From Nocardioidaceae bacterium (lineage in GTDB: Bacteria > Actinomycetota > Actinomycetes > Propionibacteriales > Nocardioidaceae), in NCBI GenBank assembly GCA_030447585.1, contig JAUJOO010000002.1:199895-263894 (forward strand): a stretch of 64,000 nt of DNA. The letters run 5' to 3'. The notes beneath the pieces were generated by a model. It was not told the origin of the DNA, made no database searches, and worked only from the letters and a program-made list of their open reading frames with translations. A program made the position numbers and the translations under genes. The stretch's first letter is position 1. Each line of letters opens with the position of its first letter. Positions 1,738 to 46,830 of the stretch are shown here, one piece after another.

Positions 1738-2664
1738 ATGCTGACCTCCACTGCCAGCGCAGACTCGCCACCGGCCGTCCTCGTCGTCGGGTCGCTCAAC
1801 CGTGACTACGTCTGCCGCGTGTCGGCCATACCGCAGCCTGGACAGACGGTGCTGGGCGGCGAGCTGAGCTTGGGCTGCGGCGGCAAGGGAAGCAACCAGG
1901 CGGTCGCCGCGGCAAGGATGGGGGTGCCCACCGCTCTGGTCGGTTGTGTGGGAGCTGACTCCGACGGTCGTGCGCTCGTCGAGGCGCTGGCGGCTTCAGG
2001 CGTCGACACCGACAGAGTCATCACCATTGACGGCGTCCGCACCGGGGCAGCCCTGGTGATTGTTGCAGATGACGGCGAGAACTCGATCGTCGTCTCGCCC
2101 GGCGCTAACGGTCGGCTCGACGGTGACCTCGCGCGAAGCGCCGCCGGACAGCGCCTGCGTGCCGGTGACGTGCTCGTGGTACAGGCCGAGATCCCGCCGG
2201 CCGCGATCATCGCGGCGGCGGAGGCGGCGGCACGGGTGGCGGCGCGCGTCGTCTTGAACCTCGCCCCGTACTGCGAGCTACCCACCGCGGTACTGGAGGC
2301 ATGCGACCCGTTGGTGGTCAACGAAGGCGAGGCGAGGGCCTTGCTCGCAGTCGCAGCGGGTGCTCGCGCAGATGCGCGCGACATGGCCGCCGAGCTGACC
2401 CGTCGAGTGCGAAGTGTGGTGATCACCGTAGGGGCTGCCGGCGCTATCGTCGCGCAGGGCCCCGACCTGGAGCACATTCCTGCGGACGAAGTCGAGGTGG
2501 TCGACAGCACCGGCGCCGGCGACGCGTTCACGGGCGCCCTCGCCGCAGGCCTGTGCCGCGGCGAGGACCTCCGAAGCGCAGCGCGGCTCGGCGTCGCGGC
2601 AGGCAGCGCCATGCCGTTCGCGGCCATGGGGCGCAGTCGAGCTTTCCCACCCTGGGCGACCTGA
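1738..2664 (+). CDS. rbsK: ribokinase (PfkB family)
   Basis: An ATG at 1738 lies 20 nt after the hydrolase stop. Motifs: VLVVGSLNRDYV, GGKGSNQAVAAARMG, ENSIVVSPGANG, DSTGAGDAFTGALAAGL. Confidence 0.85.
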   Translation: MLTSTASADSPPAVLVVGSLNRDYVCRVSAIPQPGQTVLGGELSLGCGGKGSNQAVAAARMGVPTALVGCVGADSDGRALVEALAASGVDTDRVITIDGVRTGAALVIVADDGENSIVVSPGANGRLDGDLARSAAGQRLRAGDVLVVQAEIPPAAIIAAAEAAARVAARVVLNLAPYCELPTAVLEACDPLVVNEGEARALLAVAAGARADARDMAAELTRRVRSVVITVGAAGAIVAQGPDLEHIPADEVEVVDSTGAGDAFTGALAAGLCRGEDLRSAARLGVAAGSAMPFAAMGRSRAFPPWAT

Positions 2665-2712
2665 CGGAGCCATGAGACGACGCGAGTGTCTCGCTGAGTG
2701 ACCGAAGGCCAG

Positions 2713-2739
2713 CCAACCTTTGTCCCGTCCAATAGCGTT
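2713..2739 (+). promoter_or_regulatory. candidate ECF-type autoregulatory promoter (CCAACC-N17-CGTT)
   Basis: ccaacc (2713-2718), a 17-nt spacer, then cgtt (2736-2739), about 30 nt upstream of the sigma-factor ATG at 2770. It is one mismatch from the GGAACC-N16/17-CGTT type ECF consensus. Motif match only. Confidence 0.25.
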
Positions 2740-2769
2740 CACAGGGGGAGAGCGAGGTGCAGCCGAGTC

Positions 2770-3297
2770 ATGGCGGCTATGTCGGAGGACGACAAGGCGA
2801 CGTTCACCATCTGGGCGCAGAGCCGGCTGGGGCGGCTGGTCCGTTCGGCCACCCTCCTGACCGGTGACCAGCAGCTGGCGGAGGATCTTGTTCAGGAGGC
2901 GCTGCTCAAAGTCGCCATGCGCTGGCCCCGGCTGCGGGACGGAAACCCCGAGGCGTACGCGCTGACCGTGGTGTTCCGCGACAACGTGTCGTGGTGGCGC
3001 CGCCGACGTCCGGTCATCGTCGAGGACGTGCCCGATGTGCCGACGCCGATCAGGCCAGATCTCACCGAGCATCGACTCGTCGTCCTGGCCGCTCTCGACT
3101 GCTTGACGGTCAAGCAGCGGGCCGTGCTCATCCTGCGCTTCTACGACGACCTGAGCGAGCGGCGTACGGCGGAGATCCTCGGAGTGGGCGTCGGGACTGT
3201 GAAGAGCCAGACGGCCGCGGGCCTGGCCCGCCTCAGGGCTGTTCCGGAACTCCTTGCGACGCTCGACAACGAAGGAGGACACGATGGACGAAGGTGA
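2770..3297 (+). CDS. ECF (sigma-70 family, SigE-like actinobacterial subgroup) RNA polymerase sigma factor
   Basis: Region 2: LLTGDQQLAEDLVQEALLKVAMRWPRL. Region 4: LDCLTVKQRAVLILRFYDDLSERRTAEILGVGVGTVKSQTAAGLARL. The ATG at 2770 is preferred over the GTG at 2698. Confidence 0.85.
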   Translation: MAAMSEDDKATFTIWAQSRLGRLVRSATLLTGDQQLAEDLVQEALLKVAMRWPRLRDGNPEAYALTVVFRDNVSWWRRRRPVIVEDVPDVPTPIRPDLTEHRLVVLAALDCLTVKQRAVLILRFYDDLSERRTAEILGVGVGTVKSQTAAGLARLRAVPELLATLDNEGGHDGRR

Positions 3298-38147: not shown

Positions 38148-39470
38148 TCATGGCGCCTCCGACTGAGTCTGGCTGCTGTCGTCGCCTAGCGTTTCGTCGC
38201 GCGCGACATCGGCGGCAGTCTCGGCGCGGCTCATCGAATGCTCGTTCACGATTCGGACTCCGAGGAGCGGCAGTAGCGCCAAGGCGGCCAGCACAGCGAA
38301 CATGACCTGCATCCCGAGTACCTCTGCTAAGGCTCCACCGAGCAGCGCCCCCAGCGGCAGGGTGCCCCACGCGATAAGTCGGTAGAAGCTGTTGACTCGC
38401 CCGAGCACGGTGTCTGGGGTGACGCGCTGGCGGAACGTCAGGGTCACCACGTTCCACGAGGCGACAGCGAAGCCTCCGACGAAGAAGGAGATGAGAATCC
38501 ACCAGTAGTTCGAGGTCACGGCGGGGAGTCCGACGAACAGCCCCATCGAGGCGAGTGTGGTGGCCAGGAGGCGACCGCGCCCGATCATGCCTGCCAGGCC
38601 GGTTGTGGTCATCGATCCGACCAGGCTGCCTGCACCTGCCGAGGTCAGCAGCGCCCCGTAGCCGGTGTCGCTCAACGCCATCGCTGACCCGGAGCCGACC
38701 GCGAACACGACGAAGGTGCCGAGGAACGCACTGGTCGCGATGTTGCAGACCGAGACCATGAGCGCCATCGCCCGCAGGACATGGTTGTCCCAAACGAACC
38801 GGATACCCCCTAGGAGGTCTGGTCGCGATTCCTCGAACTCGGATCGATCGGGACGGAACCGGCCAGGCAGCAGGACCAATGCGACCAGGGCGACCCCCCA
38901 CAGTCCAGCTGAACCGGTGACACCGAGAACGATGCCTGTCGCGACCAGGAACCCACCCAACGGAGGGCCGACGAAGAGGTTGGTCGAGATCTCCGCCGCA
39001 GACAAACGTCCGTTGGCTCGCCCGAGGGCCTTGACTGGGACCACGCTCGGCAGCAACGACTGCGCGGCCGTGTCGTACACGGTCTCCACGATCCCGAGCA
39101 CGAACGCCACTAGGTACAGCACCCAGATCGACTCGACCCGGGTCGAGATCGCCACCGCGAGTGCCAGCAGTGCGCCCACACGTACCAGGTTCGCGAGCAT
39201 CATCGCCAACCGGCGGTCGACGGAGTCGACCAACACACCCGCCGGGATGGCGAACAACAGCCACGGAAGCGACAGCGAGACCAGGATCCCACTGACCAGC
39301 ACCGGCGAGTCAGTCCAACGGACGGCGATCAAGGGCAGGACGACTTTGACCACGCCGTCGGCCAGATTCGAGGATGCGGAGGACACCAACAGCGTCCAGA
39401 AGCGATACCCCAAAGACTCCTGGGAGGGCGCGGTCTGCCCAGGCGGTCGTGAACGTTTCAGCATGGGCAC
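38148..39470 (-). CDS. MFS transporter
   Basis: 440 aa with about 12 hydrophobic segments. MFS loop motif: GVLVDSVDRRLAMM. Confidence 0.8.
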   Translation of the reverse strand: MPMLKRSRPPGQTAPSQESLGYRFWTLLVSSASSNLADGVVKVVLPLIAVRWTDSPVLVSGILVSLSLPWLLFAIPAGVLVDSVDRRLAMMLANLVRVGALLALAVAISTRVESIWVLYLVAFVLGIVETVYDTAAQSLLPSVVPVKALGRANGRLSAAEISTNLFVGPPLGGFLVATGIVLGVTGSAGLWGVALVALVLLPGRFRPDRSEFEESRPDLLGGIRFVWDNHVLRAMALMVSVCNIATSAFLGTFVVFAVGSGSAMALSDTGYGALLTSAGAGSLVGSMTTTGLAGMIGRGRLLATTLASMGLFVGLPAVTSNYWWILISFFVGGFAVASWNVVTLTFRQRVTPDTVLGRVNSFYRLIAWGTLPLGALLGGALAEVLGMQVMFAVLAALALLPLLGVRIVNEHSMSRAETAADVARDETLGDDSSQTQSEAP

Positions 39471-39479
39471 GTGCCAGAC

Positions 39480-39880
39480 GCTACGAGATCACCGACAGGC
39501 CGCGACCCGTAGTCCACGTCGTTGAAGAAGCGTGGGAACCCTCTCATCATCTGCTTCAGCTGGTCCGGTTCCATCATCTCCCTCAAGGCCCGCAGGGACG
39601 CGACCCATACTCCATCTAGCACCGCCAGGGGCTCACCATCATGCGGCGCGAACGCCCCTCGGTCGTGAGACTCGATCCTGGGCCCCGCAACTTGTCGACC
39701 GGGGTAGCCCCACGCGTCCATCGAACCGCGCAACGTTGCGGGGAACCCCATCGATGTCGTCGTACCCACGATGCTCACCAGGCCCCTGGGCAAAGTCTCG
39801 GTCGACCTCAGACGCGATTGACGAGTAGCCAAGTCCAGCCACACGACCCCTCGAACCCGGGGATGCTCCCTCATTCGCGA
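39480..39880 (-). pseudogene. fragment resembling the C-terminal part of a family-2-like glycosyltransferase
   Basis: ..GEPLAVLDGVWVASLRALREMMEPDQLKQMMRGFPRFFNDVDYGSR.. (compare ..DG..l..rr.....FDe...gFh.YD.D). There is no N-terminal catalytic region. Weak call. Confidence 0.25.
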
Positions 39881-39884
39881 GTCC

Positions 39885-40166
39885 GCGCAGGCAGCACCAG
39901 CACCCGCTGGCGGGAGTAGCGATCGGAGAGCACTCTCCCGACCAGCAGCAGGAGTACGTGAGGGATGCCGCGGGCAGCCAGCACCAGCCCGAGCTCTGCG
40001 CCTCCACCGCCGAGCTGCAAGACGGCGAAGGCGATCGCCACGGGTCGCCAGCGTGTTTCCGAACAGGCTGATGGTGCGGCCGGCCGCGAAGACCAGAAAG
40101 CCCGGGCTTGCGCAGCGGCGCCCACGGCCCCGCACCCCGCTCAGACAACGTCGCGTCGTCGGTCAT
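39885..40166 (-). pseudogene. MFS-transporter N-terminal fragment, frameshifted
   Basis: Pieces in different frames: MTDDATLSERGAGPWAPLRKPG.., FLVFAAGRTISLFGNTLAT.., VAIAFAVLQLGGGGAELGLVLAARGIPHVLLLLVGRVLSDRYSRQRVLVL. Confidence 0.4.
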
Positions 40167-40213
40167 GTGGCTTCCTTTCGTGAACCCGGGCCGCCCGCAC
40201 TCGTGACTATGGG

Positions 40214-40230
40214 CTGTACGTTATGTACAG
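40214..40230 (+). promoter_or_regulatory. palindromic operator candidate upstream of the antitoxin gene
   Basis: ctgtac-gttat-gtacag, a perfect 6-5-6 palindrome in an AT-richer patch (..atgtatcattttgactatg..) just before the ATG at 40247. Confidence 0.45.
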
Positions 40231-40246
40231 ATGTATCATTTTGACT

Positions 40247-40507
40247 ATGACGATGGAAGTGCCGGTCACAGAGGCCCGTGCCGCCTTCTCCGAGTTGATC
40301 AACCGTGTCGGCTACGGGGGAGAGCACGTCATCCTCACCCGCCACGGCAAGCCGCTGGTGGCGCTCGTGCCCGCCGCCGAGGTCCAGGAGACGGCGACCG
40401 AGACCGAGGGGATCACCGTGCTGGACCTCGCCTCCACGACACGCGAACACCAAACACCGCCTGGCATCGCCGCGCGCTACTCCACCGATCCCCAGGCGCA
40501 CGACTAG
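40247..40507 (+). CDS. type II antitoxin, Phd/YefM family
   Basis: MTMEVPVTEARAAFSELINRVGYGGEHVILTRHGKPLVALVPAAE is the canonical Phd/YefM N-terminal fold signature. The C-terminal 40 aa are low-complexity. Confidence 0.8.
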   Translation: MTMEVPVTEARAAFSELINRVGYGGEHVILTRHGKPLVALVPAAEVQETATETEGITVLDLASTTREHQTPPGIAARYSTDPQAHD

Positions 40508-40655
40508 CCAGCACAACACCGGTCTGCGGTCCGAGCAGCCGTAACTGGCGCCGTACTGTTACCCGCAAGCGTTCGGCTAACGGCGACTGCAGAGGACGGC
40601 GAGCGAGTTGCATCATCGCAAGAGCGATGTCGCTGGTGCTGGTTACCATCGCGTT

Positions 40656-41351
40656 ATGAGTAGATGCACAGCACCGGTACAGGGCCATCGCACAGCGAGC
40701 GGTCGCGCCGCCTGCCCTGCATGCGGGGACGGCGGCTATGGTGCATACTCGCCTCGGTCCTACTACCCGCCGGTCTACCAGCCGCGGAGCAGTGTGGGCG
40801 GCACGAGCAGTGGGGGCGGGTCGGGCAGCAGCGCGCGGCCGAGCTGGTCGTCGAGCAGCTCCTCCGTGACCTACACGCCTGCCGAAGTGCGGACGCTGAC
40901 TCCTATTCGCCGCGAGGTCGAGGCGCGAGCGCATGCCTACCCTGACCTTCGCGACGTCTTCCTCTGCCACGCTTGGGATGACCGGCGCGGTGCTGCCAAG
41001 GAGTTGCACGACCTGCTCGAGTCCAACGACGTGTCGGTCTGGTTCAGCGAGAAGGACGTCATGCTCGGCGTGCCGCTGCTCCGCGCAATCGACAAGGGCC
41101 TGGCGAAGTCGCGTGCGGGGATCGTGCTCGTCACCCCTGCGCTGCTGACCCGCCTCGCGTCGGAGGGGATCGCTGACAAGGAACTCTCGGAGCTCTTGGC
41201 GCGCGACCAGCTCATCCCCGTCGTGCACGAAACGACGTACGAGGCTCTCCGGGAGGTCAGCCCCTTACTCGGCTCGCGAAGCGGCTTGAGCACTGCAGAA
41301 GATTCGATGGCAGACATCGCCGCCAAGATCGGCGAGCTGGTCGACGTGTAG
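40656..41351 (+). CDS. TIR-domain protein with Cys-pair / Ser-Gly-Tyr-Pro-rich N-terminal region
   Basis: C-terminal ~140 aa: DVFLCHAWDDRRGAAKELHDLLESNDVSVWFSEKDVMLGVPLLRAIDKGLAKSRAGIVLVTPALLTRLASEGIADKELSELL, a TIR beta-alpha pattern with a candidate catalytic Glu in ..KELSEL. N-terminus: ..AACPACGDGGYGAYSPRSYYPPVY..SSGGGSGSS..SSSSSS. The start is ATG 40656 or TTG 40608. Confidence 0.75.
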   Translation: MSRCTAPVQGHRTASGRAACPACGDGGYGAYSPRSYYPPVYQPRSSVGGTSSGGGSGSSARPSWSSSSSSVTYTPAEVRTLTPIRREVEARAHAYPDLRDVFLCHAWDDRRGAAKELHDLLESNDVSVWFSEKDVMLGVPLLRAIDKGLAKSRAGIVLVTPALLTRLASEGIADKELSELLARDQLIPVVHETTYEALREVSPLLGSRSGLSTAEDSMADIAAKIGELVDV

Positions 41352-41592
41352 GACCTCGTGTGGGGTGGCCGAACCGTTCTCGCTGGGCGGTCCCGTTCTG
41401 GTCACGCTCCGCGTGACGATCCTCGCCTCGAGGAGGAGTGGGAGCACCACCGTCCCGGCATGGTCTATGACCCGTCTGTCACCGAGCGGTGAGCCCAGTT
41501 CGTAGGAGAGTTTGGCATATAGTGCTACCTCGGGATCCTCCCCCGAGTCGTTCTGTGCCGATGATTGGACGTTGTCTGCGTAGGCTGACGGG

Positions 41593-42792: not shown

Positions 42793-43667
42793 GTCCGGAC
42801 CTGCCGCAGTGCGGGCGGCATCGGGACGGGGCAGGACGATCCGCCCAGCGGTTCGAACGCACTCTCATGGCTCCCTTCTGTGTCAAGACGCGGTCGAGAG
42901 GGCGGATTTAGGCTTTGGTCTGGCGGGTCCGAGGAGTGGCTTGTCCGAAGAGCCGGTGTGGGGATGTGAGCCGGTCGCGCTGGAGTCAGAGTCGTTTCCT
43001 CGTTGCCCCCCGGACCCGTCCCCGCGTTAATCGCGTGCGCGGCGAGTTCGGCGAGCATTGTGCGGTAGACGGTGTCGGAGAGTCGGCGTTTGAGGCAGCG
43101 CATCGCTTCCATCGAGCTCTTGCCGCTGGCTTTCTTTCGGTCGAAGTAGGACCGGCCGTCGGTGGGGTTGCGGAGCTGGACGGTGGCCATCGTGTGAAGG
43201 ACCCGGTTGATCTGCCGGTTCCCGCCGCGGGATAGCCGATGCCGGACGTGGTCACCGGAGGATGCGTCGATGGGTGCGATGCCGGTCCACGAGGCGAAGT
43301 GGTTGCGGTCGGGGAAACGAATGATGTCTCCGGCCTCGACCAGCAGCTGTGCCGCACCGGACGGCCCGACGCCGTGCAGGTCGAGGAGACCGGTGCCTGT
43401 GGCCTTCACTAGCTCGGTGAGCTCTTTGTCCGCGGCCTCCTTGCGGGCGTAGATCTGCTCGAGGTCACCCACGAGCTCGGCGGCGAGCCGACGGCGGGTC
43501 TTGCCCACCGCGTCACGCGGTCGCACCCGCGCCAGCAGCCGCTTGGCCTGGGCGGCGGAGAGGGCCTTCTTCGCCCCGCCTGGGATCAGCTCGAGCAGCT
43601 GCGCAGGAGGCGCTCGAAAGTGGGCTGCGCATCCGCGTGGGGTCGCTTCAGCCACCCACTGCGGCAA
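42789..43667 (-). mobile_element. IS110-family transposase, 5'-truncated remnant
   Basis: Transposase_20-type C-terminal domain: LLDLHGVGPSGAAQLLVEAGDIIRFPDRNHFASWTGIAPIDASSGDHVRHRLSRGGNRQINRVLHTMA. The N-terminal DEDD catalytic domain (over 100 aa) is absent. Confidence 0.8.
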
Positions 43668-44106
43668 ATCGCGCCACGGGCGATAGGTCCATGAACGGAA
43701 TCGCCCGCGGATCGGGCGGGGTTGTCTGAAGAAGCTCTACGAGTTCGTCGGCCGAGGCACCCCACACAGCCCGCCGAACAGCGCTGAGCTGGTAGGAATC
43801 GCCTAGCCCTGGAATCTCTTCCCCGTCGCCAATCGTGCCGCCGTCGTAGGGTAGAACAGTTTCCGTGGACAGTGGACTCCACTCGCTCGGATACTTCCCG
43901 TGTGCAGGCAGAAGGACGATCTGCACCAGGAACGTGTGCCCCTGCGTCTGGCGTGGATAGCCCGCGATGTTGAACTCTCCCTGGCGGTCTTGGCCGTCAT
44001 AGGTCCAGCCAGGGGCTTGCCAGTGAAGACGAGATGGCACCTCAGGGGCACCCAGCCGCGACCACAGCACGTCATCCACGACAAGACTCACCTCGCGGCC
44101 TGTCAC
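43648..44106 (-). CDS. hypothetical protein
   Basis: 152 aa of balanced composition (..HWQAPGWTYDGQDRQGEFNIAGYPRQTQGHTFLVQIVLLP..). The GTG at 44106 overlaps the upstream stop (GTGA). It could instead be one gene with 44103..44353. Confidence 0.45.
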   Translation of the reverse strand: MTGREVSLVVDDVLWSRLGAPEVPSRLHWQAPGWTYDGQDRQGEFNIAGYPRQTQGHTFLVQIVLLPAHGKYPSEWSPLSTETVLPYDGGTIGDGEEIPGLGDSYQLSAVRRAVWGASADELVELLQTTPPDPRAIPFMDLSPVARFAAVGG

Positions 44107-45536: not shown

Positions 45537-46830
45537 ATGCCCAACGACGACGACTGGTCGCGGTCGCCTACCGCCGCCGGCGAGCTCGAGGCATGGTCAG
45601 GCGGGCCGAGCACCTGTTGGTCACCTAGCGCAGACGTTGGTACACCAACCCTGGCGAGTTACCCGTCTCTGGAACCTCTCCGTGGGGTCGTCACGAAGCG
45701 AGCAGTGATCAGGCCGGTCATGCTCGGCAGAGCCGCCGGGTTACGTCACCATCCCGCTGACGCCGATGGGTGTCCGCCACCGCGGCATCGATCGACGATG
45801 AGTCCATCAAGCGACCTTGCAGTTCATCGAGTGGAACGCCCTATGGGACGCCCATGGGAGGCCGCGCAGTTTCGCCGCAGGTTCTTCGACCAGGAGGAAG
45901 ACCTCACACCGGACTTGGCCGAGATCGCGGACCGAGGCGACATCAACATCATGTTTGTGCCGCGCACGCCGTCTCGATACTACGAGTACGCGCCGCTGTA
46001 CCATCTGCTGCCACGGGACACATGCGAGCGCTTCGGCCTTCCGCTTCTGGGGGAGGGCAATGGCCGTTCGGGATCGAGCGTGCGGACGTGTCGAAGTACT
46101 TGCCGATCGATTTCGTGGATCGGCTGGCTCGGGCTTGGGCCTCGACGGTGTGGAGGCACCTGGACTCCGGGTCTGGAATTGCAGCCTTCCGAAACACCGA
46201 GCCCATCCGGCTTCTGGCCCACAACCTCGACTACTGGATCCCGCCGGTTACTGCTGTCCTCCAGGAGACACTGCGCGGCTTTCCGGTTGTCGTCGGCGAG
46301 GTGAGCTGCCAGAGGAGGTCCGCCTCGAGGACGGCTCCGTGCTTGAGGGTGTGGTACCTGGCTGGCCCCGTACTGGCGGGGACCTGTGGCGCGGAGCCGA
46401 GGAGGCGGCCCAGTTTATCGGCCTGACCGTCGAACGGGCCGACGGCACCGGGAACCTGCGGGCGATCCTGGACGCCGTACGGTCGCACCGTGTCCAGGAC
46501 GACTTCTCCGACCGTTGGAGCAACGCCCGCATCGACTTCGAGCGGAAGCTATACCGCACGCGCAACAGGGTCAGCGTGAAGTTCGTGGAACTGACGGACA
46601 CCATCCCAGTGCAAGGCCCTGAGAGCGAGGTCGTGGGCAAGCTCGTCTGCTCGGACTTCATGGCGCTGCTCAACGAAAGGGAACGCGAGATCGTTGTGCT
46701 GCTGTCTAGCGGCTACACAAAGCTGCAGGACATCGCCGAAGTGATGGGATACGCCAACCACAGCCCCGTCTCGAAGAAGCTCGCCCGCATCCGGCAGCAG
46801 GCCGCCAGGTTCTTCGACGAGCGGGGGTAG
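45537..46830 (+). pseudogene. hypothetical protein with C-terminal sigma-70 region-4 / LuxR-like HTH, at least two frame changes
   Basis: Pieces: 45537.. (..FDQEEDLTPDLAEIADRGDINIMFVPRTPSRYYEYAPLYHLLPRDTCERFGLPLLGEGNG), 45770-frame (..DVSKYLPIDFVDRLARAWASTVWRHLDSGSGIAAFRNTEPIRLLAHNLDYWIPPVTAVLQETLRGFP), and 45817-frame (..LNEREREIVVLLSSGYTKLQDIAEVMGYANHSPVSKKLARIRQQAARFF). Confidence 0.45.

Follow-up and report, generated by a model that had tools for sequence, protein, structure and literature searches.

A Phd/YefM-fold gene and a stand-alone TIR gene in a Nocardioidaceae genome are probably neighbours by accident

In this study, we analysed a 64-kb stretch of DNA with a GC content of 66% from a Nocardioidaceae bacterium (contig JAUJOO010000002.1, positions 199,895 to 263,894; referred to here as the window), in which a small gene coding for a Phd/YefM-type antitoxin, phd, is followed on the same strand by a gene coding for a TIR-domain protein. 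The coordinates of these genes and of the surrounding features are collected in Table 1. A preliminary description of the locus, which was made from the sequence alone, had noticed a perfect palindrome in an AT-richer patch, a Phd/YefM-type open reading frame (ORF) of about 86 codons and, roughly 150 nt later, an ORF of about 231 codons with a TIR domain, a CPAC pair and a Ser/Gly/Tyr/Pro-rich linker, and all of these features are indeed present. It was suggested that the two genes might constitute a TIR-based toxin-antitoxin or abortive-infection pair or, alternatively, that an orphan ThsB-like TIR gene had landed beside a solo antitoxin gene. Based on the comparison with related loci, we consider it likely that the locus consists of two unrelated units that became adjacent by accident, namely the remnant of a divergent MFS_3/phd gene pair and an acquired stand-alone TIR gene, which codes for a probable self-regulated NADase. 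The juxtaposition of the two genes is ordinary, whereas the TIR family itself is uncharacterized and unusually conserved.

The phd gene is intact and its product belongs to the Phd/YefM family, as its scores exceed the curated cut-offs of both Pfam PF02604 (PhdYeFM_antitox; E-value 2.5e-11, 43.6 bits, cut-off 29.8) and TIGR01552 (1.9e-12, 46.3 bits, cut-off 20.8); homologues of Phd were plentiful in the protein search. The TIR protein is matched by Pfam TIR_2 over residues 101-194 (6.9e-14) and, over its full length, by the PADLOC model PDLC00424 'ThsB1|ThsB' (3.6e-115, 381.7 bits). The neighbourhoods of the TIR gene were taken from the best 80 loci (L001-L080) of a scan of one genome per species, in which at least 503 of the first 600 candidate stretches were confirmed TIR matches. 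For phd, the contexts of orthologues with 52-86% identity were inspected in nine related loci (records L086-L096), and the palindrome was compared in eight distinct loci. The preliminary description had made its proposal depend on a conserved adjacency of phd and TIR genes in other genomes, and such an adjacency was found in neither set of loci: a phmmer search with the window Phd protein gave no Phd relative within 3.5 kb of the TIR gene in any of the 80 TIR loci, and neither a toxin family nor a TIR gene of the window type lies downstream of phd in any of the nine phd loci.

The two genes are also separated at the DNA level. The homology around phd, as delimited by blastn, covers window positions 39878-40515 (the alignments with L086, L095 and L096 start at 39878-39886 and end at 40503-40515) and stops around the phd stop codon. 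The TIR gene lies in a horizontally shared block of its own, which is 97.3% identical over 852 nt to its closest copy among the best 80 loci, that of an Actinomycetales metagenome-assembled genome (MAG) with a resolvase gene upstream (L001), and this similarity is confined to positions 40571-41421. Since the two homology blocks are distinct and about 55 nt of unrelated sequence lies between them, phd and the TIR gene belong to separate pieces of DNA. The 5' flank of the TIR block contains a -10-like TACCAT element that ends 6 nt before the TIR start codon, and a TACCAT or TACAAT element 6-7 nt before the ATG is common to L001, L002, L003, L020, L033 and L041, so that this element moves with the TIR gene in several actinobacterial loci. 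The 3' flank ends in a hairpin (GTCACGC-TCC-GCGTGAC); apart from this hairpin, no terminal inverted repeats or target-site duplications were seen by eye at the ends of the 851-bp block. We think that the juxtaposition of phd and the TIR gene has probably arisen by accident in a decaying and rearranged actinobacterial region.

The same observations contradict the idea of a type II toxin-antitoxin or abortive-infection pair made up of Phd and the TIR protein, in which Phd would neutralize the TIR NADase and would autoregulate its expression via the palindrome. The two genes do share a strand, the 148 nt that separate them contain no terminator-like site, a plausible operator precedes phd, and the TIR protein possesses the catalytic glutamate and could be toxic. 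As stated in the preliminary description, there is also no other toxin ORF around the two genes, since none of the nine alternative ORFs on both strands between positions 39458 and 41795 has a Pfam match at E <= 1. However, the pairing is absent from all of the 80 TIR loci and nine phd loci, each homology block has its boundary in the intergenic region, a conserved upstream element of its own travels with the TIR gene, the conserved partner of phd is a divergent MFS_3 gene, and the TIR gene persists without a partner in hundreds of genomes and plasmids, indicating that it needs no antitoxin. A toxin-antitoxin pair is thus exceedingly improbable. In type II toxin-antitoxin systems, the two genes typically overlap or are separated by a few nt and are passed on together; here, the gap and the split homology blocks are at odds with a compact and co-inherited operon, and the two genes do not co-occur as an adjacent pair. 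Two further candidates were rejected. A tblastn search with the genes located downstream of phd in the related loci gave nothing convincing in the window that could be a hidden toxin remnant near phd or the TIR gene, and the 10 small same-strand ORFs found upstream of TIR genes contain no RHH, HTH, AbrB or Phd domain that would be expected if the TIR gene were combined with variable upstream antitoxins.

The gene with which phd is constantly associated lies on its other side. The phd orthologues are divergent from an MFS_3 (PF05977) gene in nine out of nine related loci, that is, in every locus for which upstream sequence is available (L086/L087, L088-L091, L092 from Microlunatus, L093 from Intrasporangium calvum, L095 and L096), and the spacing between phd and the MFS_3 gene is 45-110 nt. 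The locus of the closest relative (L094, 86% identity) is cut by a contig end, and the 5' end of the MFS gene is still there. The gene downstream of phd differs from locus to locus and codes for unknown proteins of 97, 174, 62 or 180 aa, a TENA/THI-4 protein, a glyoxalase, an APH-like kinase or, on the opposite strand, a PDC-S35 TIR-like protein. In the window, a three-frame translation of the region upstream of phd agrees in pieces with the N-terminal MFS sequences of L086, L095 and L096. As this N-terminus is spread over three frames and the similarity is lost after about 90 codons, we conclude that the partner gene of the window is a pseudogene; an ORF on this remnant (positions 39871-40125, minus strand) has weak Pfam matches to MFS_1 and MFS_3.

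This arrangement is, as far as gene order and intergenic sequence can tell, the one expected for a regulator that acts locally on a target gene and not for a toxin-antitoxin module. The MFS_3 partner and the operator region have been kept in Propionibacteriales- and Micrococcales-type genomes, even though the MFS proteins encoded by the partner genes are only 25-33% identical between the loci, and it is this combination that argues for a role of Phd as a local regulator. We propose that Phd is probably an autoregulator that also regulates the divergent MFS_3 gene, and not an antitoxin for the TIR protein. The Phd/YefM-fold protein that is paired with MFS_3 looks like an antitoxin fold that was recruited as an ordinary local transcription regulator. 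It shares its N-terminal fold, small size and palindromic promoter element with the antitoxins of the Phd-Doc and YefM-YoeB systems, but differs from them in that none of the orthologous loci has a toxin gene after phd and that the partner is a divergent MFS_3 gene. One might instead speculate that Phd is a true orphan antitoxin for a toxin that is encoded in trans and that the association with MFS_3 is merely positional. This would agree with the clear Phd/YefM family membership, with the conserved C-terminal motifs TVLDL-S and GIAA of the orthologues, which could be the toxin-binding segment, and with the orphan antitoxins that are widely reported. We nevertheless regard it as unlikely, as MFS_3 and the operator-bearing intergenic region were retained during the divergence of the MFS proteins and a toxin is adjacent in none of the phd loci.

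The palindrome CTGTAC-GTTAT-GTACAG occurs only once in the window and lies in a patch with a GC content of 48%, which is flanked by sequences of 73% and 67% GC. Perfect 6-5-6 palindromes are common by chance (33 in the window compared to 29.2 +/- 5.6 in shuffled sequences), and its significance therefore comes only from its conservation upstream of the phd orthologues. The sequence (C)TGTAC-GTTNT-GTACAG, followed by GATGTAnCAT, recurs with unchanged position upstream of phd in each of the eight distinct loci that were compared, and the TAnCAT box ends 7 nt 5' of the phd start codon in most of them. The palindrome looks like an operator that overlaps the promoter of a putatively leaderless phd mRNA. 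The assumption of a palindromic operator in the preliminary description hence holds in part, since the palindrome is a credible operator of the phd/MFS_3 divergent promoter, but not of a toxin-antitoxin operon that includes the TIR gene.

Two observations can be added on the phd loci. The MFS_3-Phd pairing with TGTAC-N7-GTACA in the shared intergenic region spans Microlunatus, Intrasporangium and several MAGs, and no toxin gene accompanies it. In L096, the gene located directly downstream of and convergent with phd (2128-2856, minus strand) is matched by the PADLOC model PDC-S35 (6e-83) and codes for a protein with a CAP12/Pycsar-type TIR-like domain. As this is a second and independent TIR-type gene at the position downstream of phd, the spot may be a small insertion hotspot.

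The TIR protein starts with a CHCC zinc-knuckle-like motif (C4, H11, C20 and C23), which is followed by a disordered linker rich in Ser, Gly, Tyr and Pro (residues ~25-62), a conserved pre-TIR segment with the sequence 'RPxWS ... YTPAEVRxLTPxR', of which residues 75-94 are modelled as a helix, and the TIR domain (residues ~97-231). Among 81 aligned members of the family, C4, T5, A6, P7, G10, H11, S15, C20 and P21 show little or no variation. C23 is replaced by a histidine in three actinobacterial members (L004, L008 and L069; 'CPVHG' in place of 'CPAC') and is a cysteine in the rest. Since this substitution keeps a metal ligand, it would support a CHCC/CHCH zinc knuckle. The linker has a length of 24-48 residues in the family, of which 80% are Ser, Gly, Tyr or Pro, with about five tyrosines. 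In the AlphaFold model, residues 75-231 have pLDDT values of ~65-90 per 10-residue block, and the values of residues 1-62 are low.

The modelled TIR domain has a flavodoxin-like fold, with Foldseek TM-scores of 0.78-0.87 (E-values of 6e-10 to 1e-7) to BtpA/TcpB, PdTIR, BtTir and AbTir, and the profile of the family finds BtpA, PdTIR, BtTir and AbTir among the PDB sequences at E-values of ~1e-16. In the family-profile alignment, the candidate catalytic residue E176 aligns with E208 of AbTir; this glutamate shows no variation in an alignment of 25 members and is conserved to at least 97% among 81. Both the fold and the catalytic glutamate, for which the preliminary description had suggested a structural alignment, are therefore supported. 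E208 is required for the NADase activity of AbTir, which is abolished by its mutation (PMC10641520). The tryptophan of the AbTir WxxxE motif, W204, has been linked to the production of cyclic ADP-ribose (cADPR) (PMC10641520); the residue that aligns with it here is I172, and this isoleucine is invariant in the 25-sequence alignment. Due to its BtpA/PdTIR/AbTir-type fold and the position of the catalytic glutamate, the TIR protein is probably an enzyme.

A use of the N-terminal module as a portable sensor on other effectors was considered and rejected, as the architecture is fixed and matches of odd length look broken or chimeric. In three metagenome proteins (P0404, P0371 and P0338), the N-terminal module is followed by TamB, beta-propeller or unrelated sequence; all three break inside or just after the pre-TIR helix and are probably disrupted genes or assembly chimeras. 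Another odd-length match is a truncated TIR protein.

The best structural and sequence matches of the TIR protein are the Tcp-type TIR proteins, i.e. BtpA/TcpB from Brucella, PdTIR/PdTLP from Paracoccus, BtTir and AbTir, with 25-28% identity. They share the position of the catalytic glutamate, the C-terminal motifs 'P-I/V-x-H ... SP-x-L ... L-x-T', the single-gene organization and a helical segment in front of the C-terminal TIR domain. In contrast, the CHCC knuckle and the Ser/Gly/Tyr/Pro-rich linker are specific to the family of the window TIR protein, which has an invariant isoleucine at the position of the WxxxE tryptophan, is far more conserved and widespread and was not seen in a virulence context. 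SpbK from B. subtilis and TIR-V, -VI and -IX from E. coli resemble the window TIR protein in being stand-alone, mobile-element-borne and equipped with a short non-catalytic N-terminal part. As described in two reports, the TIR catalytic residue is required in such single-protein TIR defences, and phage portal or tail proteins act as the trigger (PMC11350192; PMC12847820). The window family also appears to act without a partner gene, as no conserved neighbour was found in the 80 loci and the gene occurs alone on 10-15 kb plasmids. A sequence link to SpbK or TIR-V/VI/IX was not shown, and no SpbK entry is among the PDB matches listed. By its predicted fold and candidate catalytic glutamate, the window TIR protein belongs to the enzymatic clade of bacterial TIR proteins, in a family that PADLOC models as 'ThsB'.

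The match to the ThsB model raises the question whether the protein belongs to a Thoeris system. With regard to such a system as it is defined, the TIR protein corresponds to ThsB, but a ThsA protein of the SIR2-SLOG or TM-Macro type is not encoded next to it in the window and was not seen among the nearest neighbours in the 80 loci, so that a Thoeris system in this sense was rejected. The TIR protein could also be an orphan ThsB that produces a cADPR-type or His-ADPR-type signal for a ThsA protein encoded elsewhere. Besides the full-length match to PDLC00424, such a function would fit with a preprint according to which cADPR isomers are produced by TIR proteins of the AbTir clade (bioRxiv 10.1101/2022.05.07.491051). 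However, Pfam and PADLOC searches gave no SIR2, SLOG or Macro gene within ~5 kb in the window, and SIR2, SLOG, Macro and PhdYeFM are all missing from the 25 families listed for the 143 ORFs nearest to the TIR gene in the 80 loci. The family is also present on 10-15 kb plasmids that have no annotated ThsA-like gene, and the tryptophan connected with cADPR production in AbTir is an isoleucine here. To our knowledge, the known Thoeris systems keep ThsA and ThsB adjacent, which is not seen here. Thus, a ThsB function of this kind is very unlikely. The second suggestion of the preliminary description, an orphan ThsB-like TIR gene beside a solo antitoxin gene, was essentially right with respect to the arrangement; the 'solo antitoxin', however, is the surviving half of an MFS_3-phd pair.

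The TIR family is widespread among bacteria. The protein search yielded at least 8000 scored candidates, all of them matching, and the best 120 homologues listed align over 84-100% of the query with 68-94% identity, with Rhodococcus, Chloroflexota, Pseudomonas, Planctomycetota, Thermoanaerobaculia and Xanthobacteraceae among the named ones. In the scan of one genome per species, the family is present in more than 500 species, and its best 80 loci are distributed over Actinomycetota, Bacillota, Bacteroidota, Pseudomonadota, Acidobacteriota, Verrucomicrobiota and other groups. Members were found on 356 plasmids, including 140 records from Klebsiella (this number includes more distant matches with <60% identity), 41 from Escherichia as well as 10-kb Acinetobacter plasmids and plasmids from Bacillus and Enterococcus. 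Of 5426 complete E. coli genomes, 109 (2%) carry the gene, 104 times on the chromosome. Phage genomes contain only two distant matches (28-30% identity among 50,697 genomes), and 24 of the 2.9 million contigs of IMG/VR have a match, many of them at contig ends; given this near-absence, a phage origin of the TIR gene was rejected.

The neighbours of the TIR gene are not conserved. When the ORFs up to 3.5 kb away from the gene were clustered for the 80 loci, no family recurred in more than five of them, and no Pfam family was found in more than three loci among the 143 nearest ORFs. The neighbours are often genes of mobile elements or defence systems (resolvase, integrase, TrwC relaxase, OLD/GajA/AriA-type ATPases, RmrA and PDC candidates), and the gene also occurs alone on the small plasmids mentioned above. 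The pairwise identity between the 81 aligned TIR proteins is 55-100%, with a median of 71%. The GC content at third codon positions (GC3) of the TIR genes in the 80 loci lies between 0.15 and 0.81 and is correlated with the GC content of the flanks (r = 0.82). Because GC3 is adapted to the host while the protein is conserved, the TIR protein must be under very strong purifying selection while its gene moves between phyla. Judged by these sequence relationships, the TIR gene is an independently acquired, solitary and horizontally moving member of a widespread and conserved family.

We propose the following model for the two units. In the first unit, Phd would be transcribed from a promoter that carries the TGTAC-N7-GTACA palindrome and, as the start of the MFS gene is located 45-110 nt away on the other strand, would probably repress both its own expression and that of the transporter. 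The transporter gene of the window, being frameshifted and truncated, is dead, and phd is left as a solo gene. The second unit would be a horizontally acquired segment of ~850 bp with its own promoter-like element and one gene. Its product would most likely keep itself inactive by auto-inhibition without a partner, and a trigger, for example a phage or another invading element, would lead to self-association through the N-terminal part and the helix. The assembled TIR domains would then cleave NAD+, resulting in growth arrest or abortive infection, while the N-terminal knuckle, the linker and the helix would supply sensing or assembly. AbTir, SARM1 and plant TIR proteins are activated by self-association of their TIR domains. 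Phd would have no role in the control of the TIR protein.

Several points weigh against this model. The idea that Phd controls the MFS gene derives solely from synteny and from where the operator lies. As no terminator was detected in the stretch that separates the two genes of the window, transcription may read through from phd into the TIR gene. The N-terminal 62 residues of the TIR protein were modelled at low confidence, and zinc binding and self-association in this part are guesses. The invariant isoleucine at the position of the WxxxE tryptophan suggests that the reaction product may differ from that of AbTir. In the literature searched, we found no experimental study of any member of the TIR family, and its NADase activity, toxicity and defence role are all deduced. 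Finally, the extreme conservation of the TIR protein (a median identity of 71% across phyla) with host-adapted synonymous sites is atypical for phage sensors, since sensors of phages usually evolve fast, and may indicate another, more universal target or role.

It could be asked whether the TIR protein serves the mobile elements that carry it, for instance in plasmid competition or stabilization, by blocking NAD-based immunity of the host or in signalling, and has a universal bacterial target. The strong enrichment on plasmids (the 356 records) compared to phages speaks for such a role, as do the fixed architecture, with an N-terminal module that never occurs on other effectors, and a purifying selection that is extreme across phyla although the synonymous sites are saturated, which fits a universal target better than a phage trigger that evolves fast. 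On the other hand, defence genes are neighbours of the TIR gene in several loci, and other single-gene defences are also plasmid-borne. In addition, phage defence is the function of those stand-alone bacterial TIR proteins that come closest among the experimentally tested ones (PMC11350192). We consider a function for the carrier elements rather unlikely and favour the self-regulated stand-alone NADase.

A further and equally tentative thought, which is improbable at present, concerns the way in which such a stand-alone enzyme might be activated. The family could be a pan-bacterial and self-contained TIR class, in which the zinc knuckle and the Tyr/Ser/Gly-rich, prion-like linker drive a trigger-dependent assembly or condensation, and the recognition of a universal cue could be the reason for its near-ribosomal conservation. 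If this were true, a condensation-activated TIR class would be the bacterial counterpart of the plant TIR-only proteins and SARM1, and the cue recognized would be a universal cellular or mobile-element cue and not a phage-specific protein.

What was proposed as a new TIR-based toxin-antitoxin system is thus probably a positional accident, and inferences that are drawn from gene neighbours need a synteny check before experiments are started. The stand-alone TIR family is widespread and far more conserved than usual defence sensors, and the identification of its trigger and product would extend TIR biology. Likewise, a Phd-fold regulator that is associated with MFS_3 bears on how 'orphan antitoxins' in genome annotations are to be read.

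Table 1. Position of the phd and TIR units and of the neighbouring features in the window
Feature	Position	Strand	Remarks
Intact MFS_3 gene	38148-39470	-	440 aa
MFS_3 pseudogene remnant, divergent partner of phd	39878-40166	-	two frameshifts in first ~45 codons; truncated after ~90
Palindrome CTGTAC-GTTAT-GTACAG, probable operator in the phd/MFS divergent promoter region	40214-40230		assigned by conservation
-10-like TATCAT	40234-40239	+	after the palindrome; ends 7 nt before phd ATG
phd, intact 86-aa Phd/YefM-fold protein	40247-40507	+	PF02604, TIGR01552
Junction, ~55 nt, outside both homology blocks	40516-40570		block ends by blastn
Horizontally shared TIR block, 851 bp	40571-41421	+	85 nt 5' flank, TIR gene, 70 nt 3' flank
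Stand-alone TIR protein, 231 aa	40656-41351	+	starts 148 nt after phd
Lipoprotein-like ORF, 399 aa	41593-42792	+	signal 'LGLASGCTS'; without Pfam or PADLOC family
Truncated IS110-family transposase ORF, 292 aa	42789-43667	-	Pfam Transposase_20 only, residues 94-173
Sizeable ORF	43648-44106	-	without Pfam or PADLOC family
Sizeable ORF	45817-46830	+	without Pfam or PADLOC family

The surroundings of the two units agree with the island of gene debris and the truncated IS110 element mentioned in the preliminary description. In addition to the MFS remnant with its two frameshifts, an alpha/beta-hydrolase fragment is present near phd and the TIR gene, and the IS110-family ORF is regarded as truncated because it keeps only the C-terminal Transposase_20 domain. 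An intact MFS_3 gene lies directly beside the MFS remnant, with ~400 nt of unassigned sequence (39470-39878) between them, and its product has 32% identity to the Phd-partner MFS protein of L088. No tRNA or non-coding RNA landmarks were found in the window.

Some further observations concern the movement of the TIR gene. In about eight loci (e.g. L050, L057, L077, L031 and L052), its GC content is 15-25 points above that of the host, and such a mismatch in a minority of the copies suggests recent transfer across GC classes. IS110-family sequence is located near the TIR gene in three unrelated loci, namely in the window, in L008 (251-616) and in L099, a Rhodococcus plasmid; the DNA in L008 is 67% identical to window positions 42909-43286 and lies ~200 nt upstream of the L008 TIR gene. 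This proximity could be due to chance or could hint at the way in which the TIR gene is moved. In E. coli chromosomes (L084/L085, 6456-9129), the family member WP_001389195.1, an accession without mention in searchable papers, resides in an island with YagK/YfjJ, DUF905, DUF932 and antirestriction genes and is flanked by ~1.5 kb of unannotated sequence upstream and 0.4 kb downstream. On the Klebsiella quasipneumoniae plasmid pA708-2 (L082, 4498-8316), the TIR gene is flanked by two ISNCY transposase genes of equal length and the same orientation, an arrangement that resembles a composite transposon.

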